IMG/VR virus record: IMGVR_UViG_3300025168_000043
Span: 1 to 64,000 of that record
Reading direction: 5' to 3' (one strand)
DNA from: a virus
Length of the DNA stretch: 64,000 nt
The position numbers were made by a program, and so were the translations under genes. Below the pieces are notes generated by a model, which did not search any database, was not told where the DNA came from, and was given only the letters and a program-made list of their open reading frames with translations. Below, piece by piece: positions 970 through 50,000 of the stretch (its first letter is position 1; every line of letters begins with the position of its first letter).

Positions 970-1323
970 ATGTCTTGGAAAAGAAAGAAACTAAGGAAAG
1001 GCCGTAATACATATTATAGCCTATCTAAGAAGCTACGTCAAGAAAAAAGATCAAATGATGAGTTTGAGACGATGTTAGGCAATCTTTCCCTTGAAGAAGT
1101 CATTGGTCTGAAATTAGAATTATCTACAAAACCTGTTAACGGCAGGCTTTATGGATTTCCTTTATGGAATAACTTGACAGAGATAGTAAGAGATGCTATA
1201 TTAAAGTATGCTTATTCTGCTACGAGGACACAAGTAGAGGCTATGAGGTTTCTAGGGTTAAGGCAAGATAGATTTCAGAAACTAAAAAACAAATATAAAC
1301 CAGTTTCATACTTTGAGGATTGA
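970..1323 (+). CDS. Basic protein with C-terminal Fis-type helix-turn-helix
   Basis: DAILKYAYSATRTQVEAMRFLGLRQDRFQKLKNKY resembles the Fis/NtrC HTH pattern; K/R-rich N-terminus. Confidence 0.55.
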   Translation: MSWKRKKLRKGRNTYYSLSKKLRQEKRSNDEFETMLGNLSLEEVIGLKLELSTKPVNGRLYGFPLWNNLTEIVRDAILKYAYSATRTQVEAMRFLGLRQDRFQKLKNKYKPVSYFED

Positions 1324-1327
1324 TAGA

Positions 1328-1335
1328 ACTATTTA
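1328..1335 (+). promoter_or_regulatory. Putative phage late promoter ACTATTTA upstream of pilin-tmRNA
   Basis: Same motif recurs upstream of about 11 gene starts; followed by hairpin ACACCC/GGGTGT (1340-1357) and AAGGAG SD. Confidence 0.65.
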
Positions 1336-1375
1336 AGTGACACCCAATGGGGGGTGTAAAAAAAGGAGAGTCATT

Positions 1376-1513
1376 ATGTTTACGTTCGCAAAGGACGAGA
1401 GCGGAGCTACGACTATAGAATACGGTGTGTTTTTTACAATACTAATCAGTGTATTTTATATTGGTGCTTCATCGCTAACAACATACGTTGAACAAACATT
1501 TCAAGTGCTGTAA
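1376..1513 (+). CDS. flp: Flp/Fap (Tad-type) prepilin, 45 aa, absent from ORF track
   Basis: MFTFAKDESG^ATTIEYGVFFTILISVFYIGASSLTTYVEQTFQVL: DESG cleavage site, Glu+5/Tyr+6 Flp motif, hydrophobic helix; AAGGAG SD. Confidence 0.85.
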   Translation: MFTFAKDESGATTIEYGVFFTILISVFYIGASSLTTYVEQTFQVL

Positions 1514-1520
1514 GAATTAC

Positions 1521-1833
1521 GGGGACGTTCAGGATTCGACGGAGTGATAAAAGAGGATAGTGCAGGCAGTCGTGATGACTTAAAAAATCAAAAACAATTA
1601 GTTGCCAATAACAACAATTTCGTTTTAGCACAAGCTGCTTAATCGGGAGGCTGATTAGAGCCTTCTATCCAATCTAATCAAAACAACAGATCAGTTGTAA
1701 AAATCAAACAAGAACCTGTCTCTGGTCACAGTAAGATCAGAAAAGTTTTGTTGATTTTGAAAAATCTCCCAAGCCTGTGGATGACTTGAATTGGAAATTA
1801 TTTCGGACGTGGGTTCAATTCCCACCGTCTCCA
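1521..1833 (+). ncRNA. ssrA: tmRNA
   Basis: 5' GGGGACG..GGATTCGAC; acceptor stem GGGGACG/CGTCTCC with G3.U wobble and discriminator A; T-arm GTGGG-TTCAATT-CCCAC; helix TGCAGGC/GCCTGTG; tag frame 1604-1642 ANNNNFVLAQAA*; CCA not encoded. Confidence 0.95.
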
Positions 1834-1890
1834 TTTTTTTGCCCTCCTATGTTGTATTTGGTACTATTTACAGCGTAGGAGGGTTTTCTT

Positions 1891-2766: not shown

Positions 2767-2994
2767 ATGAAAAAAAAGAAATGTCCTTTTAAACGAGGGC
2801 AGCGAGTCAAATGCAAGGGCTCCAAAAGGTGCGGAACAGTCTTATCAAATGGCTGGTACACCATAGGAGACCCAAAGTTCACACAGTTCCCCGGTGGCCC
2901 TCTGGTCATTGAGGGATACATTGCAGTGCAGTTTTTAATAAAAGGAAAACGATACAGATGTATGGAAACAGTAGACAATTTAGAACTTTGCTAA
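2767..2994 (+). CDS. Small basic SH3/KOW-like hypothetical protein
   Basis: FKRGQRVK..GTV pattern; packed directly after the previous gene. Confidence 0.45.
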   Translation: MKKKKCPFKRGQRVKCKGSKRCGTVLSNGWYTIGDPKFTQFPGGPLVIEGYIAVQFLIKGKRYRCMETVDNLELC

Positions 2995-3026
2995 CTACTT
3001 ATTAATGGAAGACGGAGGGCTTTATT

Positions 3027-3299
3027 ATGGCCGTAAACTTAGGCGAAAAGATGTGGAAGGTGTTCACAGTTGTCTTAGGTGTGATTATAATGCCACTTGC
3101 TGGCTGGGTTTGGAATACAAATGTTGCGCTTGCTCAACTACAAAATGATCTTGGCGATGCTGAGAACATGGTGGTTGTAATAGAAAAGAAATTGTCAGAG
3201 GCTGACACAAACTCTAAGGCAATTATTTCAATTGAAAAAGATATTGAGTATATGAAACAAACTCTTGGTCGTATCGAAACACTGGTGTCTAAGATATGA
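3027..3299 (+). CDS. Membrane protein, N-terminal TM plus coiled coil (holin/XhlA-like architecture)
   Basis: VFTVVLGVIIMPLAGWVW followed by heptads; GGAGG SD; ACTACTTA at 2994-3001. Confidence 0.55.
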   Translation: MAVNLGEKMWKVFTVVLGVIIMPLAGWVWNTNVALAQLQNDLGDAENMVVVIEKKLSEADTNSKAIISIEKDIEYMKQTLGRIETLVSKI

Positions 3300-3610
3300 T
3301 GGTTCGAGGACCGATCTTATTTTTTCTTTTGCTCGCCCCAACTAGTGTTGCCTCTTACGGGCCTTCTGATGTGTTTGTGAGCCATTCTGTTGACACGGAA
3401 GAGGAACCGGCCCCTCAAAAGCCTACGGATTGTGAGAAGGCCTCTAAAGACCTCAAAAACGACATTGTTGGTTTAGAGATGTTCTTACAAGATAAAAGCG
3501 ATCATAAAATATTTTGTCCGTACTCCAAATGGGTGCAGCCACCACTTAAAGAATACAAGAAAAAACCTAAGTCTTACCTACCAAAAGGTTGCAAAGCAGA
3601 AAAAATCTAA
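3296..3610 (+). CDS. Exported hypothetical protein
   Basis: Signal-peptide-like PILFFLLLAPTSVAS; ATGA overlap with previous gene. Confidence 0.55.
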   Translation: MMVRGPILFFLLLAPTSVASYGPSDVFVSHSVDTEEEPAPQKPTDCEKASKDLKNDIVGLEMFLQDKSDHKIFCPYSKWVQPPLKEYKKKPKSYLPKGCKAEKI

Positions 3611-3628: not shown

Positions 3629-3657
3629 TTGACAAGCACACGGTGGTTTGTTATACT
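3629..3657 (+). promoter_or_regulatory. Sigma70-type promoter
   Basis: TTGACA-17 nt-TATACT with extended -10 TG. Confidence 0.85.
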
Positions 3658-3684
3658 AGTTATAGTCGAGGGGGAACTTCGGCT

Positions 3685-3858
3685 ATGAATGTTAAAAAGT
3701 TAGGAGCAGGATACATAGGATTTGCAACGGGAGTAGTTTTCGGCGCTATTGTAGCGACCATTACTAGTTACTATATATTTGAGACTGCACTGGGTTCACC
3801 AGATGCGGGAAGAGTGTTACAGATTCAAGAGTGTCTACAAGAGAGGATTTATGGGTGA
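3685..3858 (+). CDS. Small membrane protein
   Basis: MNVKKLGAGYIGFATGVVFGAIVATITSYYIF; start reassigned to ATG 3685, downstream of promoter and GAGGGGG SD. Confidence 0.6.
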   Translation: MNVKKLGAGYIGFATGVVFGAIVATITSYYIFETALGSPDAGRVLQIQECLQERIYG

Positions 3859-4309
3859 GAAAGTAATCGCTGTATCGGGAGGATTTGATCCTGTCCACGT
3901 TGGACACCTCCGTATGATGCAGGACGCAGCACAACACGGAAAGCTGCTTGTTATTGTGAATTCAGATGATTGGCTACTTCGCAAGAAAGGTTATGTTTTT
4001 ATGCCTTGGGAAGAGCGAGCCGAACTTATTGGTGCCTACGACTTTGTGGATCACGTCGTAATGGCAAAAGATGAAGATAGAACAGTTGTGGCCTCCTTGG
4101 ATGAGTTGAGGCCTGACATTTTTGCTAACGGTGGCGACAGAGAGAATGTCAACACACCAGAGGCTAGATTTTGTAGGGAGAATGGTATTGAAATGATCTG
4201 GGGCATTGGCGGCGGTAAAATCCAAAGCAGTTCCTCTATGGTCATAAGCGCAACACAAAAAAAAAGAGCTAAAGATTTAGAAAAATGGCGTAACCAAGTA
4301 GCCTACTAA
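3851..4309 (+). CDS. HIGH-family cytidylyltransferase-like protein (TagD/RfaE-II-like)
   Basis: SGGFDPVHVGH, NSDDWLLRKKG, FANGGDR, KIQSSS; start reassigned to ATG 3851 after GAGG. Confidence 0.85.
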   Translation: MGEKVIAVSGGFDPVHVGHLRMMQDAAQHGKLLVIVNSDDWLLRKKGYVFMPWEERAELIGAYDFVDHVVMAKDEDRTVVASLDELRPDIFANGGDRENVNTPEARFCRENGIEMIWGIGGGKIQSSSSMVISATQKKRAKDLEKWRNQVAY

Positions 4310-4478: not shown

Positions 4479-5834
4479 ATGGCAAAAAAAACTTATGTGC
4501 TTGATACAAGTGCTTGTTTGACGGATGCGGACTGTATAAATAATTTTGCTAACAATGACATTGTAATACCATTGAAAGTTCTTGAAGAGATTGATAAACA
4601 CAAAAAACGACAAGACAGTGTTGGTATTAATGCAAGAAAAATAATTCGGTCCTTTGATGAATTGAGAGCAAAAGGATCCTTGCAAAAAGGTGTCCGACTA
4701 GGCAAAGGAAAAGGTATTCTTAGAGTGGTCAGCCATAATTTGACCGCTTTACCTAACGATTTAGATAAATCTGTGCCTGATCACGAGATTATTTCAACTG
4801 CTATTGGGGAAGACCAGAACAACGGCGCCAGAAAAACTATTGTTGTCAGTCGAGACATCAATATGCGTGTCATTTGCGATGCAATAGGTCTTTTAAGTGA
4901 GGATTATAGGGAAAATGAGGTCATTAAGAAAGAATCTGACCTCTTTACTGGCTTCCGGTCTTGCTTAGTAGACGACCAAGAGGTTGATTTCTTCTATCAA
5001 AATGACCCGGTTTACCTAGATCCAGAGGAACATAGGGGTATCTGCCCCAATGAGTTTGTTATGCTGGTGTCCAGTTCAAACGAAAAAAAGACTGCTTTAT
5101 GCCGTTTTTCTGATTATATGAGCCCATTAGAGGAAGTTTTAAACTTTAAAGACGGTCTTTGGGGTGTCAAAGCGCGAAACAAGGAACAAACCTTTGCACT
5201 GGACCTTTTAATGGATCCCAGCATCGAGGTGGTATCCCTCGTAGGCAAAGCCGGCTCGGGTAAAACCCTTATGGCGATCGCCGCTGGGTTGGAGCAGGTT
5301 GTTTCAAATCTTAACATCAAAGATAAGTTAAAAGACGATTCATACTGTCGCACTCCATACAAAAAGCTGGTTGTATCCCGCCCAGTTATGCCTATGGGTA
5401 AAGACATTGGCTTCTTGCCCGGTTCTCTTGAAGAAAAAATGGCCCCTTGGCTAGCACCAGTTCAGGATAACTTGAAGTTTTTGACAGGTGATGATCAAAC
5501 GACACTTGAAGATTATATGCAACGAGGTCTGATTGAGATTGAAGCACTCACATATATCCGTGGTCGTTCTATTGCCAACGCATTCATCGTCATAGATGAG
5601 GCTCAGAACCTCACAGCGCACGAGATCAAGACTATCCTAACCCGAGTAGGGGAAGGGACAAAGATCGTCCTCACGGGCGACGTAGAGCAGATAGATAACA
5701 TCTACATTAATGAGATGTCTTCTGGCTTGACTCACGCCGTCGAAAAGATGAAAGCGCACGAAATTACAGGCCACATTACACTGAGAAAAGGTGAAAGATC
5801 TAAGGTTGCAACGTTGGCAGCAAAGGTTTTATAA
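4479..5834 (+). CDS. phoH: PIN-domain/PhoH ATPase fusion (PhoH2-type)
   Basis: N-terminal YVLDTS, VLEEID, VSRDINMR (PIN); GKAGSGKT, IGFLPG, RGRS, DEAQN, GDVEQID (PhoH). Confidence 0.93.
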   Translation: MAKKTYVLDTSACLTDADCINNFANNDIVIPLKVLEEIDKHKKRQDSVGINARKIIRSFDELRAKGSLQKGVRLGKGKGILRVVSHNLTALPNDLDKSVPDHEIISTAIGEDQNNGARKTIVVSRDINMRVICDAIGLLSEDYRENEVIKKESDLFTGFRSCLVDDQEVDFFYQNDPVYLDPEEHRGICPNEFVMLVSSSNEKKTALCRFSDYMSPLEEVLNFKDGLWGVKARNKEQTFALDLLMDPSIEVVSLVGKAGSGKTLMAIAAGLEQVVSNLNIKDKLKDDSYCRTPYKKLVVSRPVMPMGKDIGFLPGSLEEKMAPWLAPVQDNLKFLTGDDQTTLEDYMQRGLIEIEALTYIRGRSIANAFIVIDEAQNLTAHEIKTILTRVGEGTKIVLTGDVEQIDNIYINEMSSGLTHAVEKMKAHEITGHITLRKGERSKVATLAAKVL

Positions 5835-29752: not shown

Positions 29753-32700
29753 ATGTCAAAGATTAGAAGAGAAGACGGCAAAAGCAGTATAGAAGAATAT
29801 ACTGGTGCGGAAACTGAAGAAGGTTTTGAGTCTGGATCCCGTCGTGGAAGAGACCGGGACAGAGATGGAGAAGATACTGGCTCTTATCTTGATTCTAACC
29901 AGAACCCATCCTCTCCAGATGACGAGTCAGAAGGCAAAGACACGTCTGATGGTTCTTTACTAGAAGATTATGTTGATCTTTATGACCCAATAGACGAAAG
30001 TTTTAAATTTCTTGAATGTGATCCAGTCGAACAAGTGGATGACAAGCCACCTTGCCCTGTGTGTCGTCCCAATCCGTATGCTTATGTTCCTGATTACCGT
30101 ATGATGGAAAATGGTGATGTATTTTTCAATGGCAAGAACTGCACCCAAAACATAGTGTTAGTCTTTGATGCACCTGCCAATAGCATTATTGGTGCTCCAC
30201 CAAGTTTTGGGGCTGAGTCTATGGTCGCCGCTAGCTTAAGACCGGAGACAACGGACAAGATTGAATCAACAGGCCCGACCGTTTCGGAACTAAAAAGCCC
30301 AAACTTTAAGAAAGATAAAAAACAAGTTGGTATTGGAAAGCTCCTAGATTACTTTAACAAATCCAGAGAGGCAACAGCTTTTATTTATCGAGCTAAACCA
30401 GCAAAAGATAGAGTGTTGGCTGGAACTACTGCTGCTCTTGGCACAGGTGGCACAGCAGCGGCAATAGCTTTAGCAGCCACAAACCCAGTTACCTTAGCTC
30501 TTCTGGTCGGCGCCACGGCCGCAGTCACGCTTGGCCTTGGGTACGCAGCATTATTACCTAAGAAGAAAGGTTATGATCTATCAACAGAAGAAATAAATAT
30601 CCCAAAAGAGTTGATGAAATATGCAACATATGAATATCATATTCCCTTACAACTTAAAGCAAGAACAAGAGTTTTAATATCGATTCCCGTAGAACAGTTT
30701 AACCGCGCGCCAGACAGACTTGTTTCGGAACCAGAAACGGAGTTTGAAGACAAACTAGAAGTCACATTTATGGGCAACGATATTAATGGTATGATAAAGA
30801 GAGCAGTATCCTCCTTTAGGGTTTACGATAATGAGCTTAAGAGGTGGCGAGGGTTTGAAGGTGGTAAGCTTGTCGAGGCTGATAGTGGTAGAACAAGCGC
30901 CTTTAGTTTAGCTTCTGAGGGTGATAAACTTATTACATTTAAACATGAACTTGATAAATTAATGGAAGATCTTGGCTTTTCTTTGGATCCATTCAAACCG
31001 GGGAAAAGACCGGAAAAAATACTTATTAAGTTTAAGTTTGAAAATGAAAAATACTCTATTCGACAAATACACGTTAATCTACCGGGTTGCCCTGTTGTTA
31101 AAGTTGGCCCCCGAGGTAAATTTAAAAACCTATATGAGAAATATACTAAAAAGTCTCCACTTGGTCGCTCTAGAACGTTATATTATATTGGCGCATTACC
31201 AGAGTTAGATATCGCATTAACCGCACGAACACCAATGCCTTGGCTTGAGGTTACAACCAAATTTACATATCCCCCTCTTGAAATACAGAATGGTATCAAC
31301 TCAAATACAATGTTTAATGATCCAACTATGTTGGGTTGTTTGATTAACTCAAATTTTGCAGATGAAAGAGTAGATGATTTTTTCAATGATGTGACTGGTG
31401 TTCTTGACGGTTTTGATGATCTGTTCTTGGCAAAATTAGGTGAGTTTAGCTGTAAGACTCGCGACCAACTTCAAGATGATTTAAATGTATTACAAGAATT
31501 TGATAATGTGTTTACGGCACAGAGTAAGCGAGTTCTAGCACAACTTCGCAATGAATTACGAGCAGATGATCCATACCTAGACATTGTTATACAGGAGATG
31601 TTCCCAGCAAACACTGCTTGGGGAGAACTTAGTCCCCAACAACAGGCAGTAGAGATTAAAGAACATGGCTCCTTGAAGGCCGCGAAAGAATCAAATGCTC
31701 CAGAAGATGTGCAAGAAAAGTTTTTTGTTAGACTAAATGATAGGCTTGGTCATTGTGGTTGGATCGCTTTGACAATGAGAGCTATTGATTGTGTTGCACA
31801 AGGTATAGTTGGTGACGACGCGACAAAACTACTTGCGGAAGCGGCTTTCAACTCTATGGAAGACGCCGCATTAACAAGATCTTTCTTGGGCCTTTCACCA
31901 GAGGCTCAACAGAAAGTTGTTGATTCCATGCGAAATAACTTTGGTGATATGCCAGCACCTTGGGATACTGACTACCAGCCCGGAAACTACACAGGTGCAG
32001 GTTTCTCAGTTAGTCCACTAAACGCCGAACAGAAAAAGTTTGCTCGTGAAGAAGGAGGCTCGGAGGCTGTTAAGGAAGCTAGACAAAAAGCAAGAGAAGA
32101 TGCCGATAAACCAGCCAAGCCAAATAGTCAGAAGGGCTCAGGTGGCACATATGGCAGAGCTTTGGGCGGTGTTCAAAAGGAAGCTTATGACGCACTTAAG
32201 CAGTCCATGTTTGATGCTCTTGGCGCCGAAGAATTACTAGAGGCTGCAAATCAACTTCCCGGCGCTCCAATCATATCACAAATACTTAAGAGGGTGGCTT
32301 GTAGGCAAACTCCACTTATTTATAGTGAGCCAAAACTGGATTCGTTCTTGAGCACCGTAGAATTTGATTTCTGTGCATGGGATTCTGACATGACGTTCCC
32401 AGAATTTGGCATACTCAATATCCCTGACCTTTTTGCGATACTTTTAAAAGCTTTAAAAGAAGCCATTATTGAGACTGCTGTAGCTATCGCGATGCAAGTA
32501 GTTAAATTAATTTTAGAAAAGATCTTTTCTCTTGCTTGTGATGCTTTAGCACTCCTCGGCGCTAACTTGCTCGACCTCACTAACGGAAACAATCACTTTA
32601 GGGACTTGCTAAAAGATAATCTTTGTCCTGACGCGTCCCAAGAGGATATGAATGAAACAATCAAAAATTTGTTTGATGCATTGGGTGACCCAGATCAAGA

Positions 32701-35700
32701 CTGCCTTGAGCGTCTAACAAATGATGAAATGGGAGACTTTATTGATGATATCTCTCTGATGCTGACACAAGGTCAAATATGTCAACTGTTAAGGGGCAAC
32801 CCAAGCGACGAAACAATGAAGATGGCAATGGAGCTTGCACAAACATCAGACTCGGAGTGTATTAGGGATATATTCTCAGATCCCAACGCGTTCAGAGATT
32901 TCTTTAGGTCACTCGCGCCATTTATCCCCAACTTAAATGAGTTATGTGATAACTTGCTGCCAAACGCTAGCGACTTAGACGTTTATCCTTGTGCTCCCGG
33001 TACTGCTGACAAGATTGAAGAGTTCAGGTGTGACCTCTTGCAACAAAAGGGACTTACTAAAGAAGAGTGTAGAGATATTCTTGATGACCTTAAAGACAAG
33101 GCTCTAATGGATTTGGCAGATCTAGCCGATGTGATGCAAAATGGGCCGTTTGGAAACACACCACCAATGAGTTCCGACGAGGACTGCCCAGCCGCAGGTT
33201 TCTTCCCAACAGAACATCCACTTCAAAAGGCTCTTAACAATAATATTTCTAAATCAATGATGGAAACCATTGAAAAAGCTCACCTAAGAGACTTGTGGGG
33301 TAATATTAATAAAGGCACAGGCCAAGGTGGCTTCTTAAATGCTGTCTTATCTGATACTTTAGGCCGTCCCTATAAACAGCATAACTGGTATGTTGAGCAT
33401 CTTGGTGCCCCGCTGGCAGCAGATTTTGGTTTCTTTGATTATCATTGTGATAATGCGATTATGAAACCCCAAGAGGGTAAGGTTGATGGTAACGCAAACA
33501 AGCCTATAAATGTATTTGGTGAAGTACTGGATGGTCCGGAAGGTGGCAAGTCTGGAAGGCAATCTTTCGGCGCTGGATATTCTAATGGTGGCTATCCTCC
33601 AACCGTCGCGGCCCATCTTTCCAAGAAGTTTAAAAGTATGCACAAAAACATGACGTTTAGCACCACAACTAAACCTCCGGGCTTTCCTAACATGGCATCA
33701 GCTATAGAGGAATTTGAAAGAGTTCAAAGAGTTAATGAAAAACGCATTGATGAGCGTAGCAAATATATCGAAGCTTGGATTAGAGAGAATGATATTGAAG
33801 ATAGATCTCAATCTAAGAGGTCTGTTCTCGCTCAAGATCTTCGTTCGGGTATTGCTAAAAAGATATTCTTCGAGGAGTTTGCTGGTGATGAAGATACCGC
33901 CGGAGGCCTCAAACTAGCTAGAAAGGTGAATCCTAAAAACTCGGCTGCCGACTTGGCCCGAGAGGTCTTGTTAGGTAAGCAAGTTTTAGGTGGTGTCGGT
34001 AAACCGGGCGAAAAAGGAGTCCCCTCACGGTCAGGAACAAAAGGCAAACTATTCCTTGATGAATATGGCGGGAAACATAAGTTACTACCTCTCCCGGACA
34101 CATCCTCTGCTGATGTTGTATTAAAATACGGAGCATATCCAACAGATCCTGAAGATAATCAGTCGCCATATCAGTTTACTATTGAATACGATTACAACTT
34201 GTTCGATCAGGAAACACAGCGTATAATTGATGATAACAGATACAAAGTTAAAGTTACCGAAACATACAAAACTGGCAAACCTTCTGGCAAGACTAAGAAG
34301 GAGTTACGCCAACTTGGTAATCAACAACTAACAACATCAATTTACCAACCGGGCGCCTCGGGTTATTCTTTCCCTAGATATGAATTTGAAGTTGTGTCCA
34401 ACCCACCGGGCGACATAGCTGATTTCTTAGATGGTTTGACCGAAGCAACACCGGGTGAACCGTTAACAAGGCCAACTGCGGATCCACTGGGTGATTCTTT
34501 TGAGACTGAGGCATTATATAACTTCTTTAGAAGTCAGCTAACTGACATTTCGGAGGACCAACGCACAGCAGTTAGAGTTATGGACAGAGGGGCATTTAGA
34601 AACTATTTTGCTAAAAAAGAAGATCTCTTTGACCCGCTGGATTTCCCAGACCCGATAAAAAGATTAAATCTATTTGATCAACTCTCAACAGGATTCATAG
34701 AAAGAATCTCCACACTTGTATCAACTGGGAACCCAAATGACGGATACAAGAGCAGAGACGATGACGATCTTAGTAAAATAGAAAAGAAAATCTCGGAGAA
34801 GATGAGCCTTGACAATATCTCCAGAGCTTTCCAGTTTGGGTACAACCCAGATCGACAGGCTAGGATTATTGAACTTGATCCATTAAAGTTTGGTGGCCCA
34901 AGGGCTCAGGCAAACCCTGATTTAGTTCCTCCTCCGTTTTATGTAAAGGAGAGAAGATTCAAAGGCTGGTTAGACTTATGCGACACACTAGTTCCTGAAG
35001 TATCAGGCTGCGAACCAGAATCTAAAGCCATATATAACTTAGAGGATTTGTCAGATCTCATAAGTTCGCTAGAATCTGAGCTAACAGCAGATCCAAGATT
35101 ACAAAATGATCCGCTCTGTTCTCAAGAAGCGCCATACGATAAGATTCTTAGTTCTTTTGACGCTGCCAACCTTGAAGCCTCCATGAGGGCAATCATAAGA
35201 ATATACACTTTGGACGTGTTCTTAAGAACGATACCAGTCTTCACAGCATTCGCATTAACAAAAGATAACTATGATGACCTAATGTTGACGTTTGTTGTTG
35301 AAAGAATGAAGCAAGGTCTTGTCGTTGATGGTGCCAAGAGAACAGGTGCAGCAGACAATACTTACTACTACAGGTTCTTAGAGCAAGCGGTTAACAACAC
35401 TAAAAGAAAACTAGACGCTGGAATATTAACTGCTGAAGACTTAACTGATGAAGAAAACGCTGCTTTTGATAGGATAGCGAATGAAATAATGGCTTATTAT
35501 GATGAGTTCGACGGAGAACTTGAGTGTTTATCAGATGCTGCCATCAAAGGCAAAGGTATTTTTGATGGATTTTTCTCTACTTCCGCTGCTGCCTCTGCGG
35601 TTGGTATTGGCGCAGGAAGTAACAGGTTTAATAAGGGAGTTGCTAAAAATGCAAAAGACAGGGCATTTAAAGATTTTGTTGGCCGCACCGAAAAAGACGC

Positions 35701-36808
35701 GCTCCTGTTCTTAAGAAGGTACGTTAGAGAAGAATTTACATTTTTAAGGGATAAGCTGTCAAATGCAATCCCGCCAGTGGTCAATAATGTTAATAATCTC
35801 ATGGCTCTTAGTCCTGATTGGGTTCGTGGTGCTGTAGATGCCGAGGGTCCTTATAATGTTATGGGCGATGTAAATGATCCAACCGATTATGTGATAGAGG
35901 CTGGTCCGGTCCGGCGAGGATCTAATGATTCGGTGAGCTTTGTTACAAATAATTACTGGCCATTTGTGCTGGAAAAATATATTAGAATACAAGAAAAAGA
36001 AGCCCCCGGATCTGACGTGGATAGATCTTCAAATCTTTACGACATTGTAAATATAGATGACTGGGAAGCATATGTTAAAAATGTGGCCTCTAGAGGAATA
36101 GAGGGTAATATATCTGACTTGTGGGAAGGATGGAGTTTTGGACTGCGACTAAGCTACCTTGTTGCTAAGGAGGACAACGCCGCATTTGAAGAGGTCATGA
36201 ACACAATACCAGAGTCTGTTTCCAGAGAAAATAAGGCATTTAATGTCGTCGATCGCGCAGGAGAAACCAGATACCTTATACCTGTTGCATCCGGAGAGCT
36301 TCCAATACCAGATCAAAAATACGATTTGTTTAAGGCTGATTCTTATGATGTTTATTGTTTGATTCCTGAGATGCAAAAAACTCCTGAGTTCCGAACAATG
36401 TTTAAATATATTTTCCCGTTGCCTCGTTTTATTTCTTTGATCGCGATGTACTCAACAATGGGTTTTACATCATCAATAGGCAACACCGGCTATCCAAACG
36501 AAGGTGGGGACGTATGGGAATATCCGGGCGGAAAACCTCACAAGAAATTTAGAAAGTGGAACCATAGCCCACAGAAAGCTTTTCAAAGGTCCCGTCAGGC
36601 TGCAAGAAGAGTATTCGAAAGTTTCTATGAAGCAGCACAAGCTCTTGATTTTGATATGTCTTCCGATAGGGATCCAAAGAATAGTGCCGATTCTTTAAGA
36701 AACTCAATCCGACCAAAGGTTAACTTTGAAGATGGGCTTCGTTGGTGGGAAAGGGGCCTTAGAGTTACAGGTAATCCATATAACGATGACGGCGACTTGT
36801 GCGACTAA
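29753..36808 (+). CDS. Giant virion-associated protein (2351 aa)
   Basis: Uninterrupted ORF between hub and gp25 genes; helical, Cys-containing, with a hydrophobic segment. Confidence 0.6.
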   Translation: MSKIRREDGKSSIEEYTGAETEEGFESGSRRGRDRDRDGEDTGSYLDSNQNPSSPDDESEGKDTSDGSLLEDYVDLYDPIDESFKFLECDPVEQVDDKPPCPVCRPNPYAYVPDYRMMENGDVFFNGKNCTQNIVLVFDAPANSIIGAPPSFGAESMVAASLRPETTDKIESTGPTVSELKSPNFKKDKKQVGIGKLLDYFNKSREATAFIYRAKPAKDRVLAGTTAALGTGGTAAAIALAATNPVTLALLVGATAAVTLGLGYAALLPKKKGYDLSTEEINIPKELMKYATYEYHIPLQLKARTRVLISIPVEQFNRAPDRLVSEPETEFEDKLEVTFMGNDINGMIKRAVSSFRVYDNELKRWRGFEGGKLVEADSGRTSAFSLASEGDKLITFKHELDKLMEDLGFSLDPFKPGKRPEKILIKFKFENEKYSIRQIHVNLPGCPVVKVGPRGKFKNLYEKYTKKSPLGRSRTLYYIGALPELDIALTARTPMPWLEVTTKFTYPPLEIQNGINSNTMFNDPTMLGCLINSNFADERVDDFFNDVTGVLDGFDDLFLAKLGEFSCKTRDQLQDDLNVLQEFDNVFTAQSKRVLAQLRNELRADDPYLDIVIQEMFPANTAWGELSPQQQAVEIKEHGSLKAAKESNAPEDVQEKFFVRLNDRLGHCGWIALTMRAIDCVAQGIVGDDATKLLAEAAFNSMEDAALTRSFLGLSPEAQQKVVDSMRNNFGDMPAPWDTDYQPGNYTGAGFSVSPLNAEQKKFAREEGGSEAVKEARQKAREDADKPAKPNSQKGSGGTYGRALGGVQKEAYDALKQSMFDALGAEELLEAANQLPGAPIISQILKRVACRQTPLIYSEPKLDSFLSTVEFDFCAWDSDMTFPEFGILNIPDLFAILLKALKEAIIETAVAIAMQVVKLILEKIFSLACDALALLGANLLDLTNGNNHFRDLLKDNLCPDASQEDMNETIKNLFDALGDPDQDCLERLTNDEMGDFIDDISLMLTQGQICQLLRGNPSDETMKMAMELAQTSDSECIRDIFSDPNAFRDFFRSLAPFIPNLNELCDNLLPNASDLDVYPCAPGTADKIEEFRCDLLQQKGLTKEECRDILDDLKDKALMDLADLADVMQNGPFGNTPPMSSDEDCPAAGFFPTEHPLQKALNNNISKSMMETIEKAHLRDLWGNINKGTGQGGFLNAVLSDTLGRPYKQHNWYVEHLGAPLAADFGFFDYHCDNAIMKPQEGKVDGNANKPINVFGEVLDGPEGGKSGRQSFGAGYSNGGYPPTVAAHLSKKFKSMHKNMTFSTTTKPPGFPNMASAIEEFERVQRVNEKRIDERSKYIEAWIRENDIEDRSQSKRSVLAQDLRSGIAKKIFFEEFAGDEDTAGGLKLARKVNPKNSAADLAREVLLGKQVLGGVGKPGEKGVPSRSGTKGKLFLDEYGGKHKLLPLPDTSSADVVLKYGAYPTDPEDNQSPYQFTIEYDYNLFDQETQRIIDDNRYKVKVTETYKTGKPSGKTKKELRQLGNQQLTTSIYQPGASGYSFPRYEFEVVSNPPGDIADFLDGLTEATPGEPLTRPTADPLGDSFETEALYNFFRSQLTDISEDQRTAVRVMDRGAFRNYFAKKEDLFDPLDFPDPIKRLNLFDQLSTGFIERISTLVSTGNPNDGYKSRDDDDLSKIEKKISEKMSLDNISRAFQFGYNPDRQARIIELDPLKFGGPRAQANPDLVPPPFYVKERRFKGWLDLCDTLVPEVSGCEPESKAIYNLEDLSDLISSLESELTADPRLQNDPLCSQEAPYDKILSSFDAANLEASMRAIIRIYTLDVFLRTIPVFTAFALTKDNYDDLMLTFVVERMKQGLVVDGAKRTGAADNTYYYRFLEQAVNNTKRKLDAGILTAEDLTDEENAAFDRIANEIMAYYDEFDGELECLSDAAIKGKGIFDGFFSTSAAASAVGIGAGSNRFNKGVAKNAKDRAFKDFVGRTEKDALLFLRRYVREEFTFLRDKLSNAIPPVVNNVNNLMALSPDWVRGAVDAEGPYNVMGDVNDPTDYVIEAGPVRRGSNDSVSFVTNNYWPFVLEKYIRIQEKEAPGSDVDRSSNLYDIVNIDDWEAYVKNVASRGIEGNISDLWEGWSFGLRLSYLVAKEDNAAFEEVMNTIPESVSRENKAFNVVDRAGETRYLIPVASGELPIPDQKYDLFKADSYDVYCLIPEMQKTPEFRTMFKYIFPLPRFISLIAMYSTMGFTSSIGNTGYPNEGGDVWEYPGGKPHKKFRKWNHSPQKAFQRSRQAARRVFESFYEAAQALDFDMSSDRDPKNSADSLRNSIRPKVNFEDGLRWWERGLRVTGNPYNDDGDLCD

Positions 36809-41043: not shown

Positions 41044-44000
41044 ATGAGTATCAAAAAACTATTTGATTCAAATAAAACAAACGACATACTCGTCTCGACT
41101 AACCTAGAAGAAGAGGTAGTCAAGAACGTCCCCGAGCTTGAATCTGCGGATAACGTCAGAGAGCAGATCGAGAGGATTAATCGTTTTATACCACAGGTGG
41201 ATTATAGTGATCCAGCCAACTTTGCTGTTTATGGATCAGCCGAGCGATACTATAGGGATTCATTCCACAGAGTTGCCACTCAATACCCGTATGATGGCTC
41301 CGAAGAAGAGATAACTCGCTACAACAACGAGTCCAACTACCTTGACCTACATATCCTTGAGAATGAGTATCCTAGGACGCTTGGCCACGTTCGGTTTCCT
41401 ACAAATAACGGCGGCGGATCCGCTACTAACCAGTTTGGCCAACAAACAAACGCAGCAAACATTACATTTTTTGGCGGTCCAAATGCTATAGCAGGAGGGA
41501 TGACAACTGGCTCATTCCACCTACAGTTCACTGGTTCCAACTATTACGATACAGATATTTATCAAACTGATGGTACGCTTGCATTAGACAGAGTTGGGTC
41601 AAGAGAAAGTAACTTAACTTACAATCTTCCTAGCAAAGGGCTCACTGTTGAGTTTTGGCAAGGAACCGAAGGAAACCTGATAAGTGCCACCGGCCCGTTT
41701 GGCCGACAATCCAGACACGCTTTGTTTGATTTATGGAACGGAGAAGCCTCAAGTTCGGCTCAATATGGTCGCCTAACTGTATACGCTTCAGGTTCTTCAT
41801 CAGCCTTTAAAGGTATTTATCTAAACGCATATTCAGGCACTGTTGGAATCCAAGAACTTGAGTTATTGGATCCTGCTGTGGCTGCTCAAATCCCACCACA
41901 ATATGTTAATACTTCATCTCCCACACCGGGTCACTTGGCTTTTGCTTTTAGTTCTGGGTCAACTCTGGGTTTAACTGTTAAAACATATATTAATGGTGTT
42001 CTAACCACAACAACAGGCTCTTCAGTCGCCCTAAATGAAGTCACTGGCGCCCTCCGAGGCCGTATTGGTGCTCTCCTAACGAACCCATCAGGTACTTCTA
42101 TAGGTACAGATATGGATGGATACGGTACCAGTATTCGCAGTGCCTACGACGAGTTTAGGTACTGGAAAGCCGAGAGAACAGAAAAAGAAATACAACAAAA
42201 CTATTGGACACAAGTTCGCGGCGGCACAAATAACGAAATAGCAAACGCAGAACTCGGTGTATACTACAAATTTAACGAGGGCATTACAGGGGATGCAACA
42301 ACTGACACCACTGTTTTAGACTATTCAGGCCGCATTACAAATGGAACTATCACAAACTACGGCACTGATGCTACCACTACACTAGTAAGAAATGCCAACC
42401 TCCTGCCCGAGCGCAGTTCGCTTATTGTTGCTGCTGGAGCAGCCACATCAGAGTTCAAAGACCCAATCATCTATGCAAGCCATCCAGATGTTGTCTCAGC
42501 ACTTGACAGATTGGTCGCATCTGGTAGCGTCCACGACTTTGAAAACCAAGCAAGCATAAAAGATTCTATCCCAAGCTGGATCATAGAAGAAGACGAAACA
42601 TCAGGCGGTGAAGAGTTAGGAAAGCTTACGCAGATCCTTGGCTCCTATATGGACACACTTAACCTGCAAATTGAGTCCCTGCCCACATTAGCAGATAATA
42701 CATACTTAAGTGGCAGCGACAAGCCTACACCATTTATGAAGAACCTGTTAAGCTCCCGAGGCTTGGCAGTCCCAGAAATCTTTGTGGACGCAGATCTGCT
42801 CCAAAGATTCGCTAACAGAAGCGACACCGAAGGCTACACTCTTGATATTAACGATACCAAGAACCTTATTTACAAAAACATCTACAACAACCTTATCTAT
42901 CTTTATAAGTCAAAGGGTACAGAAAAAGCATTTAGAAACCTTATCCGCTGTTACGGTATCGGTGAAGATGTTATTAGATTCAACGCATATGCAAGCAATC
43001 AAACCTTTGACATCCAAGAAACAAGACAAGACAGAGTTATTAGAAAGAACTATGTTGACTTTAACCACCCTGATAGGTTTGATGGGGTTGTTTATCAGAG
43101 AGCCAACACTGGTGAAACAACTGGCATATCTTTCTTCTCGGCATCCTCGCCAAATAACGCTTTTGCTCAAACCGCAGAACTAGAAGTTATATTCCCAAGA
43201 AAGATGGAGTTTGCTAACTCGCAATATTTTGATACACCTTTTGTTACAGCGTCCCTCTACGGTAAAGCATCAGCATCAGCAGACCCAGCAATCTTTGACG
43301 CAGCGTTTAGCAATAACCCAGCCACCGCACCTTGGCTTGTTGCTTATGCTGTTCGCACACAACAAAACTCAAATGATGCTTATTTTGTTCTTGATTCTAA
43401 CTTATTTACAAATCCACTTACAAGTGACATTTACTCAAATATTTACGACAACCAGAAATGGAATCTGGCGATAAGAGTTAAATCAAAAAACTGGCCATAC
43501 TCTACGGGCTCTGTTGCATCAGGTGATGGGGCTGCTTCTTTCGGAAACCAAGAGGTTAGCTTTGTTGGCTATAACGTAGAAAATGGAGTCGTAAGAAATA
43601 GTTTTGTTTTAACAACTTCATCAATATCCTCCAATTTAGGGCCAAGTTTGCCTTATCGCTACTTCGTCGGCTCACAAAGAACAAATTATACAGGCGCAGT
43701 AGGCCATCAGACTGATATCTTAGCATCCTCACTACGAGTATATACAACCTTTTTAGATGACGATGTTATCAAATCACACGCCCTTGACCCCGAAAACTAC
43801 GGAACAAGAAACCCTAGCAGAAACTTGTTGTTCTATAACGACTCTGACGACGCAAGCCTAAACCCGGCGATTAAAACAACTATCCCAGAGTCTGTTTCTC
43901 TTGCTCTTAATTGGGATTATTCGCAGGTCACTACAACAGACGCCACTGGCCGCTTTTCGGTCCAAGATGCATCATCTGGTTCAACAGGGCTAACCAGCAG

Positions 44001-47000
44001 ATACCCGCAAGAGAATGTACTTACAAATGTTAATAAACAGTTCGCAGGCCGAGGACAGTTTGGGGTTAGCGCATACAGTTCAACGGATGTCATCTCCAAG
44101 CAGTTTGTTCAATCAGCACAACAAAGACTGCCCGAAGTTGTTAATACCAACGATGATGTAAATGTTCTGTCCAGAGATGATGAACTTTACCCAAGAGATG
44201 CATCCATCTCACAGACCTACTACACCTTTGAAAAGAGTATGTACGGTATCGTTTCACAAGAAATGATCAATATGTTCTCGTCTATTGTTGAGTTCAACAA
44301 CCTTATCGGTGAAGTTGTTCATAAGTATCGTGGTGAATACAAGAGTTTAAGACTTTTAAGAGAACTTTTCTTTGAGAAGATCCAAAACAACCCTGACCTC
44401 GACAAGTTTATTGATTACTATCATTGGATTGATTCTTCACTTAACATTTTCTTACAACAGTTTGCTCCTGCTTCTGCTGATGTCTCCGATGAGATTCGCA
44501 CTATAGTTGAAGATTATGTTCTTAATCGCTCCAAGTATCAACACAAATACAACCAGATCAAACAAGGTGACTCTGGAACTGGCACAAAAGCTGGTGGCTT
44601 TGACGAAACTATTCTAGAAGGCAGGGTCAAGGGCACCAGAGAACTACAATACGACTGGCAGTTTGGTCACGCCCCCCTAACTAACTCTCAAACCGAACAC
44701 TCCCTTTGGTGGAAAGACCGAGCAGAAAGAAACAACACAGCATTTAATACCGCCGCGCTTATTGACACAGCAAGAGAAGACATTCTCACTATCATCCAGT
44801 TATTCAACTCTGCAAGCGCCCCATCGCTTAATGACGGCACCGGAGCCTCTGGGATATACGAAGGGTCCGCTTACGCCACAAGACGCTTCACAAGGCAATA
44901 CAAGCTTGATACAGCCATTGTCCCTGATATCGGCGGTGGGTACAACTACCCAAGAAACCACAAGCCGGATGCTCTTTTTCCCCTGATGTTTGACCAACCA
45001 TTGGATCTTACTAATAATATTGAGCAGGTAAATTTTGAAAAACAAGGGATGTTTACTCTTCCAGAAGAGGAACTAAGGCCTGTTATAAAGCAAGAAAAAA
45101 GAAGATTTACCGCAATCAATCCCGAGACACCCGTCGGCACCAACGGCGCTACAGTTTTTAGAGCATCTAGTGTTTTAGCCGGAACAAAATTTGTTACGCC
45201 TTTTATAATATTTAGTTCATCTGTTTCGCCTGCTGGCGGTTATGGACAACAATGGCAAACTTATCAACTCAAACCAGACTTCAATAAAGAAGAGTTCGCC
45301 GGTTATCACAATGATTCTTATGGTGACGACTATGAAGTACCTATGCAGGGTCCTTTTACTAACCACCACGTCGGCGGAAATAGACACCGGCATACCGATT
45401 TAAATAAAGGATCAGATACAGCGTTAAACAGGGCAGAGGCTTGGGAATTAGATATTGGAAATTCTGAGGTCGGCGCCGCCAAAGCCCGAGGTGCATCCGA
45501 TGGTTCAATTAATACAAACATGCCCGGATCTAACCCCAACTACCGCAGAGACGAAACAGCCAAGCGCCCCGTTAACACCAAAAACATCAAACACAGAACA
45601 GGTTCCCTTGGCACGGTTGCAATGGGCAACTATTCTGCAAGTTATGAAATAGTTCAAACAACTGGTAGAACTCAAAACAACTCTGCGTTTGTAAAGTCAG
45701 AGGGTATAAGAGATAACTTTACGATTTCTGTTGCTGGCGCTGATGAGGTTGGCTATATTGATCACGTCACAGACTACGCCAAGCCTATTCGCCGCAGAAC
45801 AGAACACGTTATAGTTAATCGTTTCTCCGCACCCGGTGGTCCTGAAACAGCAGGTGATAGTCAGGGTGGCCCCGGTCTTGACTTTGAGGCAGCAGAACTT
45901 AGCCCATACAACAACCTAAACTATAGAAATACAACCGTTCGCGACCCGCTAGAAACTTTATTATCAGAACACTCCGCACAGTTTGGACTTAGATCAGGTT
46001 CTATAGCTTCACCTATAGGATATAGTGGATCAGCAACTAATGTAACAGCAAGCTTTCACAAAGTTAATAGAAACCCGCTTCATAGGCTTGAAGGATATGA
46101 CACAGGTTCCGACACTCCAGTTACAGGAACAGTGTTCGACAACTATTATGTACAACATATGATTCCAAGATCTGATTTCCAATACGCTTGGATTACAGCT
46201 TCTTCTGATAGATTTAACTCTGCATTCGGCGCAGCCAATAATGTATATGGTTATTTCCCGTATGATGGCCTAGCCAGAGTGTCGAGTTCAGCCAATGGGT
46301 TTAGGTATGAATCAGCAGTTAACTTTGTTAGTGCAAGCGAGATAGGCTCTGTTCCCGGCACTATAACATATTCAACCACTACCACAGCAACCGAAACACT
46401 TACGGGCCGTGGTAGTTTAGTCAGCAAAGGTGTTTACGATATATCTGGATCTTCAGGTTCTTTCGCGCCCGCTGCTAATCCTAATGATCATTTTATACCT
46501 CAAACCACTCATCTAAACATTGGTGGTATTTACGGAGACTTGTTCTCTACTTTCGTAGGACCTAAAGTTGCTCCCTTTACTTACTTACCAAGTAGGGGCG
46601 GCAACCCCTCCGCCATTGACAAAACACACGATTTTAATAGTTCACTTACGTTCTTAACGAATCAAGTATTATTTGGTGGAAACCTTTCTGATCCCCAAGA
46701 GTTTATAATCGGCCAAGATCGCGAATACGTCACTCAGTGGGTAGTCGATACTGTTTTGGGTGTCACCCCCTTCGACAAAGAGACCGGTACCGGAGGGTAT
46801 ATTTTCAATGCAGCCGGCGCTCCGTATGGTAGACTTTATACTAGCCCATCAGCGATGGACAACACTAGATTTCAAATGTTTCAAACGCTCAATAAAACAT
46901 ATGGTAGATTTGAATCAACCAACTATGTGAAATCCGTGGGATCAATCCCGTTAGCCGTAGCCTATCCACCAGAGGTCGGCTTTAATAAATATGGCTTAGG

Positions 47001-50000
47001 TACGCTCACACAACCTATATCATTCACAAACGGTAATCCTCTCTTTACAGTGTCTAATATGATAGAGACATCTGCTTCCCGTGGCGCCGGCTTAATATTA
47101 AACTCGCTTTTGACAAAACGTAATGGCTATTATGGTCATCCAACATGGAAGCAAATACGAGTAGGAGAGACTGGCTTAGTAAGGTATCATAGAAAAAATA
47201 ATTATTATTCGCACACATATGATCCGGTGATCATTTCCAGCCAAACAGATCCAACTGGCGGGAGAGCAAAAGTTCAATCTAGGACAGAAAATATTTTAAT
47301 AAGCCAATCAGTTGTTACAGATCGCTATTTCCCTGTGGTATTTGAATTAGAAGCTAGGGATGATCAACAAAATAGTAAAGTTCTCAAATCAACAAATGTT
47401 GTAGCTAGGACATCGTTTGCTAATGATGTAATAACCTTTGATAACCAAGATGTTGTAGACAGGTTATTAGATGCTGATGTTCTAGAAGCTTCCGAAAGGA
47501 AAACCTCTTATAGACAAATTGTTGACGATTTCAGCATATATGATAGTTTCCTAGACGAACAAAAACCAATACTTCAGATTAATAGTTTAAAATATAGAGA
47601 AACAGTCTATCCACCCAGAAATTTTGCATATACTTCCTTAACTCGCGGCCGCAACAATTTTAGTAACAACTTCTGGCGTGATGCACGCTCTGATAGAACT
47701 TGGCCTTCCACACCGCCAGCCAACGCGGAAAATCTTACAGAATACTCAAAAACCCAACGGGAGAAAAACACTAATAGTCAGGGTCAGGGATCCTCAAATG
47801 TGTCGTTTCAGCTAGCGCCTTTTCAAAGTCGATGGGCACTTGATGGATTGTTATCTACCACAAATCAGAATAATTTAACTACTTTAGCCGGATATCCAAC
47901 TGGTGGTATTAACGCTAATAATGCAGATGGCTATAAGCCCGGTGAGCTTCAGAACTTATACACTCATTTTGTTCGAAACCAACAAGATGACTTTGAAATA
48001 GATCGCTCAGACGATGGTGAAATAGCTCAACTTCGAGCAGGAGCTTTGTACGCTAGAAAGCATATCAATCCTTACACTTCTTCGGTATGTGGTATGTCAG
48101 GCATGAGAAAACAAATAGATATATCGGCTTTTATTTTCTCTGGAACATCTTACCTCTTATTAACTAGCTCCATTGGTGCTGGCGAAGCATTTTGGGATGC
48201 ACCCAATCTGGCAGGAAGATACGAAGGCACATCAAGTGTTTTTGTTAAAGAACGAGCAACACCATTCTATGATGATTATGATGCTTTTTATTCGGATATA
48301 AAAACAAAAACACGCGGCCGCTCTATTATACCGGAGTTTAGAATAGAAGATCATATAGATTTTTACGAACAAAATGGTTTTGATTACCTCACAGAAAACC
48401 CAGCCTTATTTCAGTTCCCCGGTGTTCCCAGTCAAGAGGGGTATCTCCAGAATAGTGGATATCCTCACTTCTTTAAAATATTCACCAACTCTGATTTTAT
48501 GCAACACTTTGAAGTTGTTCGAGAAGATGGTCTTAAAGAAGGCGGAATATTGGAGCCCGCAAAGGTGAAGTTAAGATGCAAAGCAGTCAAAAAGTTTGTC
48601 CCATACGACGGCTTCTATCCTGCCGAAAGAACTCTACAGCTAGCGTCTGCATTCTCCGCATCTTACGCCCCGCTTACACAACTTTCTTCTTCAACAGGCG
48701 CCGAAAACACATATCAAGTTGCTTGGAGAACAATGCTCAAACCTTTCTTTGCACCCGGAATTGTGTACAATACTATTAAATCGGGAGTTGCAGTTGACTA
48801 CCCGATAATGACTGGCTCCTACAATGTTGGTAAAATGATCATGGCCGGAGATGGAGCAAGCGCAAACACCGGAGTCAGAATGGTGGCTACAGCTTCTGCG
48901 GGCATATTCTCTAACTCAAGAAATGATTCAAAAAATGGCCTCACGGGCCTTTTGGCTGGTTTTAATATAGTATCACATAATGATGGTTGGGATTATCGTG
49001 TTCCATTCGAGACAGTGCTTGAGCCGGGTAAATATATTTATGGTAAAAATATTGTTGATGATGAACCAAGTGCTTTTGCAGGGATAAATGTTACGGCTTC
49101 TTGGGGAAGCAGCGAACAAGGCACAAAATACAAGAATATGATGCACAACTTTTTGGCCTCCTCGCTGGATGTCTTTATCAAAGACGGAAAACCAACAGAG
49201 ATTCTGTCAGCACCTCAAAAAGAATTTAAGGCTGTAACTCCGGGCCAGCCTTATGGTATGCGTATTAAAATGTATCGTAGTTTTGAATCAGGATCTCAAC
49301 AAGAAACCTCGGGAGACTGGGGAGACTTTCAGGTCCCACAATATATAAGTGGCTCCCTTACAGACTTCACCATGTACAGTCGCCCATCAGCCTTCGGCCC
49401 ACCAGTACTCGCAGGCACAGGGTCGCAAGTAATGTCGCAACAAAAATATTGTATTACTGGTTCTAGAGAGATGACTCCAGCCCGAGGGCGTTATGCATCA
49501 CATACTCCGCCTTATTTTGATGGTGAGTCTTGGATTGATCTTATTTACTATCCCTACAAATCTTTTGATAGCGGTTCCACAGGTCTAGAAGTAATAAACA
49601 ACACCACAAGAACAGTGACAGTTTCTGATTTACATAATTTAGCTTCAACTGAGTTTTCTTCTGGTTCTGCTATCCTAGACTACGAATTTGGCCAAGGCTC
49701 TAGATTTGGCGGCGAGGGTACTTATGTGGTTCGTTGGCGCTTTGACCAAGAAGCCTTAAGAACCAATTTTTCGACAGAAGATACGGGATCAACATACCAC
49801 GGAACTGGAAGTGACATCGGTCCAATGGGTGGACCTTGGGCTAATAGATGGGCAATGCATCTGGATGCCTCACTTAATATTTTTTCTAAAGCTCGCGGAG
49901 TGGGAAGCTTGGCGGCTGAAGCTGTTTCGGCTGATTTAGCAGAAAGTGGATTAGGTGATGGAAGTTTCAATGCAGGAGACGACCGTTGGCGTATCCAAAC

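Follow-up and report, generated by a model that had tools for sequence, protein, structure and literature searches.

The window analysed here, the first 64 kb of a 96,376-bp IMG/VR virus record with an estimated completeness of ~53%, carries a predicted Flp-type (type IVc) prepilin gene placed between a conserved 117-aa phage gene and a complete one-piece phage tmRNA (Table 1). Among the genes of the record are those for a prohead protease gp21 (Peptidase_S77, 105.9 bits) and for a major capsid protein of the T4 type (Pfam Gp23, 199.8 bits), and one strand holds almost all ORFs of at least 150 aa; its source is an uncultured marine T4-like phage of the virulent type. Elsewhere in the window, giant ORFs of 2351, 3393, 1257 and 841 aa (29753-36808, 41044-51225, 52310-58608) had no PHROG match at E≤1e-5.

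Table 1 Features of the pilin-tmRNA locus and of one related contig (positions refer to the window unless a contig is named).
Feature	Position	Strand	Evidence or remark
Conserved 117-aa phage gene ahead of the tmRNA unit	970-1323	+	65 IMG/VR relatives
Sigma70-like box TTGACA-17-TATATT with upstream TG, inside the 117-aa gene	1174-1202	+	11/12 consensus matches
ACTATTTA, late-type promoter-like motif	1328-1335	+	Over-represented; upstream of ORF starts
GC-rich hairpin of 6 bp where the 5′ leader begins	1340-1357	+	MFE and centroid folds; kept with small changes in L169-L173
Shine-Dalgarno AGGAG, 7 nt before the ATG	1364-1368	+	Read from sequence
Predicted Flp-type (type IVc) prepilin gene, 45 codons and TAA	1376-1513	+	Pfam Flp_Fap, phage-orthologue profile, pN/pS
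Leader codons, ending in Gly	1376-1405	+	Pilin ORF
Predicted mature pilin, 35 residues	1406-1510	+	Pilin ORF
Weaker sigma70-like box inside the pilin ORF	1433-1462	+	10/12 consensus matches
7-nt spacer from the pilin stop to tmRNA position 1	1514-1520	+	Identical in alleles L170-L173
Complete one-piece phage tmRNA	1521-1836 (Rfam), 1521-1833 (ARAGORN)	+	RF00023 and ARAGORN
Second ACTATTTA motif, heading the 290-aa gene 1891-2763	1863-1870	+	Marks the end of the pilin-tmRNA unit
TadE-like pseudopilin, 138 aa	L007:5571-5987	+	Pfam TadE 42.8-44.8 bits, cut-off 22.9

The pilin ORF starts with an ATG at 1376 and stops with a TAA at 1511-1513, and its GC content is that of its flanks. The encoded peptide consists of a 10-residue leader ending in KDESG, followed by ATTIEYG and a hydrophobic stretch, an arrangement that corresponds to the class III leader and Flp motif, in which a Gly is followed by Thr2, Glu5 and Tyr6 (G/XXXXEY; here KDESG/ATTIEYG). 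With a precursor of 45 aa (50-52 aa in its relatives) and hydrophobic residues 17-33, it has the dimensions of a Flp prepilin, namely a precursor of ~45-80 aa with a ~20-residue hydrophobic helix and no globular domain. An earlier reading of the DNA, made from the sequence only, had described a 45-codon ORF at 1376-1513 with a Shine-Dalgarno sequence, a Flp signature and a 7-nt gap to the tmRNA, and these coordinates and features were all confirmed, as was the presence of the ACTATTTA motif ahead of the ORF. Its description of the pilin as unannotated applies to the earlier ORF track only, as JGI annotates near-identical homologues under the label ‘Flp pilus assembly pilin Flp’.

The window peptide matched Pfam Flp_Fap (PF04964) with 26.1 bits (E=7.6e-6) over profile positions 1-27 only, so that the scan with this model, which the sequence-only reading had proposed, gave a significant match that lies below the curated Pfam cut-off of 32.2 bits. 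Flp_Fap was the sole Pfam match of the peptide at E≤0.001, and when all six frames of the 96-kb record were searched with Flp_Fap, the pilin ORF was the single match (E=2.5e-6), which makes it more than a chance match. The orthologue in contig L007 passed the cut-off, with 36.1 bits for positions 1-45 of 46, and those in L005 and L004 scored 26.2 and 24.7 bits, respectively; in all three, Flp_Fap is the sole Pfam family listed at E≤0.1. A profile built from the four phage proteins found the PDB Tad pilins 8u2b (E=5e-5) and 8u1k (E=1e-4), in both of which mature residue 1 aligned with phage profile position 11; a single-sequence phmmer search of the PDB with the window peptide gave no match, and only the four-protein profile found the pilins. 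The window peptide had no match in NCBIfam, and neither the pilin peptide nor its close neighbours (102-917, 970-1320, 1891-2760, 3027-3296 and 3296-3607) had a match in PHROGs; PHROG matches do exist for 3779-4306 and 4479-5831.

According to the cryo-EM structure of the Caulobacter Tad pilus, the conserved residues of Tad pilins are exactly Gly-1, Thr2, Glu5 and Tyr6, and the subunit contacts are placed near both termini (PMC10710030). The invariant columns in the four phage orthologues are these same four residues (Gly10, Thr12, Glu15 and Tyr16 of the precursor) together with Met1 and Phe4 of the leader. Homology of the phage peptide to Flp pilins is well supported by these profile and motif comparisons. 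A tad/cpa locus, with its TadV/CpaA peptidase, TadA/CpaF ATPase, TadB/C and secretin, is missing from the surroundings of the gene, which is expected for phage cargo and bears on the context of the gene and not on its homology.

The orthologues in L004, L005 and L007, all IMG/VR contigs, are 50-52-codon ORFs in the same slot between the 117-aa gene and the tmRNA, each with its own Shine-Dalgarno-like GGAG or GAGG at 6-7 nt spacing and with the same motif. The distance from the pilin stop to tmRNA position 1 is 0-9 nt in these three contigs and stays in that range across all nine loci seen. Overall, the four orthologues are only 22-33% identical, compared with 60-79% for the neighbouring 117-aa protein, so that the mature part of the pilin diverges far faster between lineages.

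Variation within a lineage was examined by searching IMG/VR and metagenome contigs with a degenerate DNA pattern of the window-type allele. The pattern had no match in IMG/VR and retrieved five near-identical alleles (L169-L173) from marine metagenome contigs. The four that reach past the stop (L170-L173) have the same motif, hairpin, Shine-Dalgarno sequence, ORF, 7-nt spacer and tmRNA; the contig of L169 stops inside the pilin ORF. Nine synonymous and three non-synonymous differences separate the window from L171 (pN/pS 0.10), and all informative pairs among the near-identical alleles gave a pN/pS of 0.1-0.3 with synonymous changes dominating. The alleles differ at up to 29% of synonymous sites while the C-terminal YVEQTF stays invariant, and more than 15 further intact window-type alleles in the protein database all contain ESGAT-x-x-EY and the C-terminal YVEQTF. 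The positional orthologues, the low pN/pS, the intact alleles and the flank-like GC content argue that the ORF is a translated gene and not a chance one. Codon-level conservation and orthologues upstream of the tmRNA in relatives, to which the sequence-only reading had pointed as a check on its proposal, were thus both found (pN/pS 0.1-0.3; L004, L005 and L007). Judged by conservation and selection, ORF 1376-1513 is a genuine phage gene under purifying selection and is predicted to be a functional Flp-family prepilin gene. Among GenBank phages (INPHARED), blastn of 900-2800 and tblastn of the Flp peptide, the L007-type Flp and the 117-aa protein found no match, so no cultured relative with this locus is known.

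Most of the 65 IMG/VR relatives of the 117-aa gene have a tmRNA after it; the 117-aa protein itself had no Pfam, NCBIfam or PHROG match. In the tree of this protein, all four pilin carriers fall within one 10-row clade (support 98/93), a pattern that fits one gain and two or three losses of the pilin gene. In the nearest two relatives (L002 and L003) the pilin gene is absent, the tmRNA begins 3 nt after the upstream stop codon, and no Flp gene was found elsewhere on the contigs, which are 25-43% complete; the pilin gene therefore appears dispensable. Most relatives likewise make the tmRNA without a pilin gene. Given that the gene is patchy within the clade and that the slot holds other cargo in relatives, we conclude from its distribution that the pilin gene is accessory cargo inserted upstream of a pre-existing tmRNA. 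Across the relatives, this slot ahead of the tmRNA is a hot spot for cargo and contains a TlpA/thioredoxin-like lipoprotein gene in one contig (L009:4352-5327), a cytidylyltransferase in another (L034:3245-3874) and a tRNA-Gly(tcc) in many (among L014-L049).

The tmRNA gave a full-length covariance match to Rfam RF00023 (model positions 1-374; 113.6 bits, where the gathering score is 47) and has a tRNA-like domain and a tag reading frame at 1604-1642, which ARAGORN translated as ANNNNFVLAQAA followed by a stop. The gene encodes no CCA. No loci related to the downstream 290-aa gene (1891-2763) were found, and a search of the tmRNA leaders of relatives against Rfam gave no riboswitch at the gathering threshold. 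In L018, L019, L034, L039 and L007, tmRNA_permuted (RF04321) scored above its gathering score near the one-piece tmRNA, with the matches just upstream of the one-piece tmRNA match or overlapping it; a closely similar RNA-like element occurs in the gaps of L009 and L011, and the gaps of L019 and L053 look related. These RF04321-like elements may be two-piece tmRNAs, duplicated acceptor pieces or another RNA.

The ACTATTTA motif occurs in 10 copies in the window against 4.0 expected, and eight of the copies are on the plus strand, seven of them 26-48 nt ahead of an ORF start. The motif or a one-base variant of it precedes the pilin ORF in every carrier (L004, L005, L007 and L169-L173). Further upstream, L002-L005, some of which have no pilin gene, share the hexamers of the sigma70-like box at 1174-1202 as nucleotide sequence, and this box is probably an early promoter reading into the pilin ORF and the tmRNA. 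A TTGACA-17-TATATT/TATGTT box lies just after the 117-aa gene instead in L006, L007 and L010, with a weaker variant in L021. The weaker box at 1433-1462, inside the pilin ORF, may be a separate promoter for the tmRNA.

In two variants from the protein database (P0010 and P0017) the stop codon is gone and the frame continues into the 5′ end/acceptor region of the tmRNA, where it ends; their tails match translations of 1518-1553, and RNase P cleavage would make their messages non-stop. One RNA-library contig spans 1461-1610 and bridges the end of the ORF and the tmRNA; it comes from an oligo-dT library and could hold DNA. Contigs from RNA libraries also cover 1533-1725 of the tmRNA, this evidence consisting of assembled contigs and not of reads, so that 5′ and 3′ ends are not mappable from it; no such contig covered the flanking protein genes, from which no conclusion is drawn. 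The co-transcription of pilin and tmRNA claimed by the sequence-only reading agrees with the architecture of a shared unit, seen in the tight spacing and in the read-through variants, but the box at 1433-1462 could start the tmRNA separately. Co-transcription is the natural reading, mainly from the anatomy of the locus, and is weakly supported by RNA. The pilin would be transcribed on the tmRNA precursor from ACTATTTA, and probably also from the sigma70-like promoter in the 117-aa gene. RNase P 5′ maturation is established for tmRNA in general, and at this locus it would then separate the pilin message from the tmRNA.

Searches of the whole 96-kb record found no Peptidase_A24, T2SSE, T2SSF or TadE, and those of a 95%-complete, 172-kb pilin-carrying relative (G001) found no A24 peptidase, T2SSE or TadE. 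The earlier observation that the window holds no prepilin peptidase or other tad gene thus extends to the whole record, where a full tad operon, the sign of an ordinary host-derived locus, was looked for and not found. A lone phage pilin gene without its own machinery is also the arrangement of the prophage pilin P-FimU. The sister phage L007 carries a TadE-like pseudopilin gene ~1 kb past its Flp-tmRNA unit, between a tRNA-Ile and a tRNA-Arg. The TadE-like family comprises 23 database clusters, from Tara marine samples where a source is given, and TadE-like genes also stand alone in three other viral contigs (L178, L179 and L180). A conserved membrane protein of ~56-71 aa is encoded just upstream of a heptose-adenylyltransferase-like gene in the window (3643-3858) and in L007 (6128-6298).

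Tad pili serve in adhesion and surface sensing, and phages adsorb through them. Because a peptidase, an ATPase, a platform and a secretin are all missing from the phage, its pilin would need a host peptidase and a host Tad machine. The 10-residue leader would be removed after Gly10 by a host peptidase of the TadV/CpaA type, and the mature peptide of 35 residues would then be taken up by the Tad machine of the host. Most likely, it would co-assemble into the pilus of the host or take the place of the host subunit, given that the residues kept in all orthologues are those for cleavage and filament assembly, and the altered pilus surface could block pilus-binding phages or the phage's own progeny, or change adhesion. 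We therefore consider the best explanation, which we hold with somewhat better than even confidence, to be that the locus encodes a tmRNA-linked phage Flp subunit that would be processed by the host and join its Tad pilus or replace the subunit there. Several observations sit uneasily with this explanation. The mature part, at 35 residues, is 10 shorter than Caulobacter PilA, and genes for superinfection exclusion do not usually have a late-type promoter; the window peptide stays below the Pfam gathering score and matches nothing in NCBIfam or PHROGs, and the nearest relatives L002 and L003 lack the gene at the tmRNA locus. In addition, the sigma70-like box at 1433-1462 could initiate the tmRNA separately, and on the RNA side there is one bridging contig, which comes from an oligo-dT library and may be DNA.

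A dominant-negative pilin, one form of the decoy proposed by the sequence-only reading, would be recognised by the host peptidase or platform, fail to polymerise productively and thereby shut down Tad pilus assembly and remove a phage receptor or adhesin from infected cells; it appears unlikely but is the most probable of the alternatives. The recognition residues conserved here would suit such a pilin too, as would a mature part of just 35 residues and the lack of machinery on the phage, and Sztanko et al. raise this option for the truncated PilA-like proteins of virulent Pseudomonas phages (PMC12952977). However, the invariant C-terminal YVEQTF, considered together with the subunit contacts near both termini (PMC10710030), suggests a constraint beyond recognition, and the TadE-like minor pilin in the sister phage fits the building of a pilus and not its blocking. 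Given the conserved assembly residues, the conserved C-terminus and this TadE-like partner, incorporation into the pilus shaft or replacement of its subunit would be favoured over pure jamming.

A repurposed small membrane peptide, a Flp descendant acting in the inner membrane independently of Tad, for instance in lysis timing or membrane perturbation, seems improbable to us. Such a role would suit a hydrophobic peptide of 45 residues that forms one helix and is preceded by a late-type motif found at other genes too, and it would agree with the fast divergence of the hydrophobic half between lineages (22-33% against 60-79% for the neighbouring gene), but the invariant positions are pilin-specific (Gly-1, Thr2, Glu5 and Tyr6) and needless for a generic membrane helix, and the TadE-like partner in the sister phage also speaks against it. 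It is highly improbable that the ORF serves the tmRNA as a translated leader, with ribosome traffic or RNase P cleavage tuning tmRNA maturation or stability and the peptide being of minor importance: the conserved 0-9 nt spacing and the variants that run into the tmRNA acceptor stem would fit this role, but most relatives, including the nearest two, make the tmRNA without the ORF, and it is the amino-acid sequence, the pilin motif in particular, that is under selection. An ORF present by chance or in decay, or ordinary host DNA from a prophage-flanking tad locus misassigned as viral, could explain the Flp_Fap score below the Pfam cut-off and the position of the locus 1.3 kb from the contig end, but is already contradicted by the conservation and selection data, with orthologues in the same slot of diverged phages, a pN/pS of 0.1-0.3 and a GC content matching the flanks, as well as by the T4-type capsid and protease genes on the record, the placement of almost all ORFs of at least 150 aa on one strand, and the lack of a tad operon in the 96-kb record and of a peptidase, ATPase or TadE in the 172-kb relative.

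Beyond the host-processed subunit that we prefer, we speculate, as a decidedly doubtful extension, on a ‘pilus conversion’ by a lytic marine phage, in which the host Tad pilus would be re-coated or rebuilt, in some lineages with a major Flp and a TadE-like minor pilin, and in which pilin output would be coupled to tmRNA maturation in mutual regulation. RNase P would cut 7 nt after the stop, or inside the ORF in some alleles, leaving a 3′-truncated or non-stop pilin mRNA, so that the tmRNA and the message would regulate each other.

The phage pilin is also a clue to the host, which should have a tad locus. A scan of genome contigs with a cell-like homologue (P0040) found only generic Flp pilins, mostly alphaproteobacterial and some beta- or deltaproteobacterial. 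By major capsid protein, the nearest cultured relatives infect Flavobacterium, Microcystis and Rhodothermus, at an identity below 50%, which predicts no host.

Compared with known systems, the phage pilin shows profile-level homology to the cellular Flp/Fap major pilins (PF04964; Caulobacter PilA 8u1k; the ‘Flp family type IVb pilin’ 8u2b/8ucr), with which it shares a short class III leader ending in Gly, Thr2/Glu5/Tyr6/Gly7, a single hydrophobic helix and a very small size. Unlike these, the phage copy comes without a tad operon, TadV, CpaF or secretin and lies in the 5′ leader of a tmRNA; its leader has only 10 residues and its mature part 35, whereas the mature part of cellular Flp/Fap pilins has 45 or more.

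Flp genes borne by phages or prophages without a tad operon are also found in Vibrio harveyi prophages and in high-GC IMG/VR contigs (L070-L087). In the V. harveyi prophages phi345 and phiGANI1709, Flp pilin genes are annotated as putative virulence factors (PMC12482185). By contrast with the window, these elements are temperate or high-GC and encode full-length canonical Flp proteins of 62-67 aa with longer leaders, and none has a tmRNA within the 3-kb flanks fetched. In most of the unrelated high-GC viral contigs L070-L084, a tRNA-Met lies 170-740 nt from Flp on the opposite strand, and in L081 the Flp ORF (2956-3159) is inside a 20-tRNA array; phage Flp genes thus recur beside tRNA-type genes.

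Phage tmRNAs are known from the OM43 phage Melnitz and from pelagimyophages (PMC9004378). Like the phage studied here, Melnitz is a marine T4-like phage with its own ssrA behind a promoter and with small regulatory or cargo elements in the leader; the Melnitz tmRNA is two-piece and has a glutamine riboswitch, whereas the tmRNA of the window is one-piece and has a pilin gene in its leader. In the literature searched, no paper described a marine T4-like phage with a Flp pilin or a tmRNA leader that contains a pilin gene; what is already known are phage tmRNAs, phage pilins replacing parts of type IVa pili, and Flp annotated in prophages. If co-transcribed, the pilin-tmRNA unit would be a naturally occurring case of a tmRNA precursor whose 5′ leader is an mRNA.

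Pilins encoded by phages are built into the type IV pili of the host and keep phages from adsorbing (Sztanko et al., Cell Rep 2026, PMC12952977), the examples being a prophage FimU (P-FimU) and PilA-like proteins from Pseudomonas and Xylella phages; some carriers of the PilA-like proteins are virulent phages, and some of the proteins are truncated to the N-terminal helix (PMC12952977). The window pilin resembles these in being a lone phage pilin gene that would rely on a host pilus machine, and its kept cleavage and assembly residues, its fast divergence between lineages and the minor pilin added in a sister lineage fit the same pattern. P-FimU and the PilA-like proteins are experimentally tested and of type IVa, either a minor tip pilin or a PilA with a globular domain, whereas the window pilin is a predicted type IVc Flp subunit of a marine T4-like phage and is linked to a tmRNA. 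If the preferred explanation is true, the replacement of host surface parts would extend from the type IVa pili of Pseudomonas to marine type IVc pili and to virulent T4-like phages.
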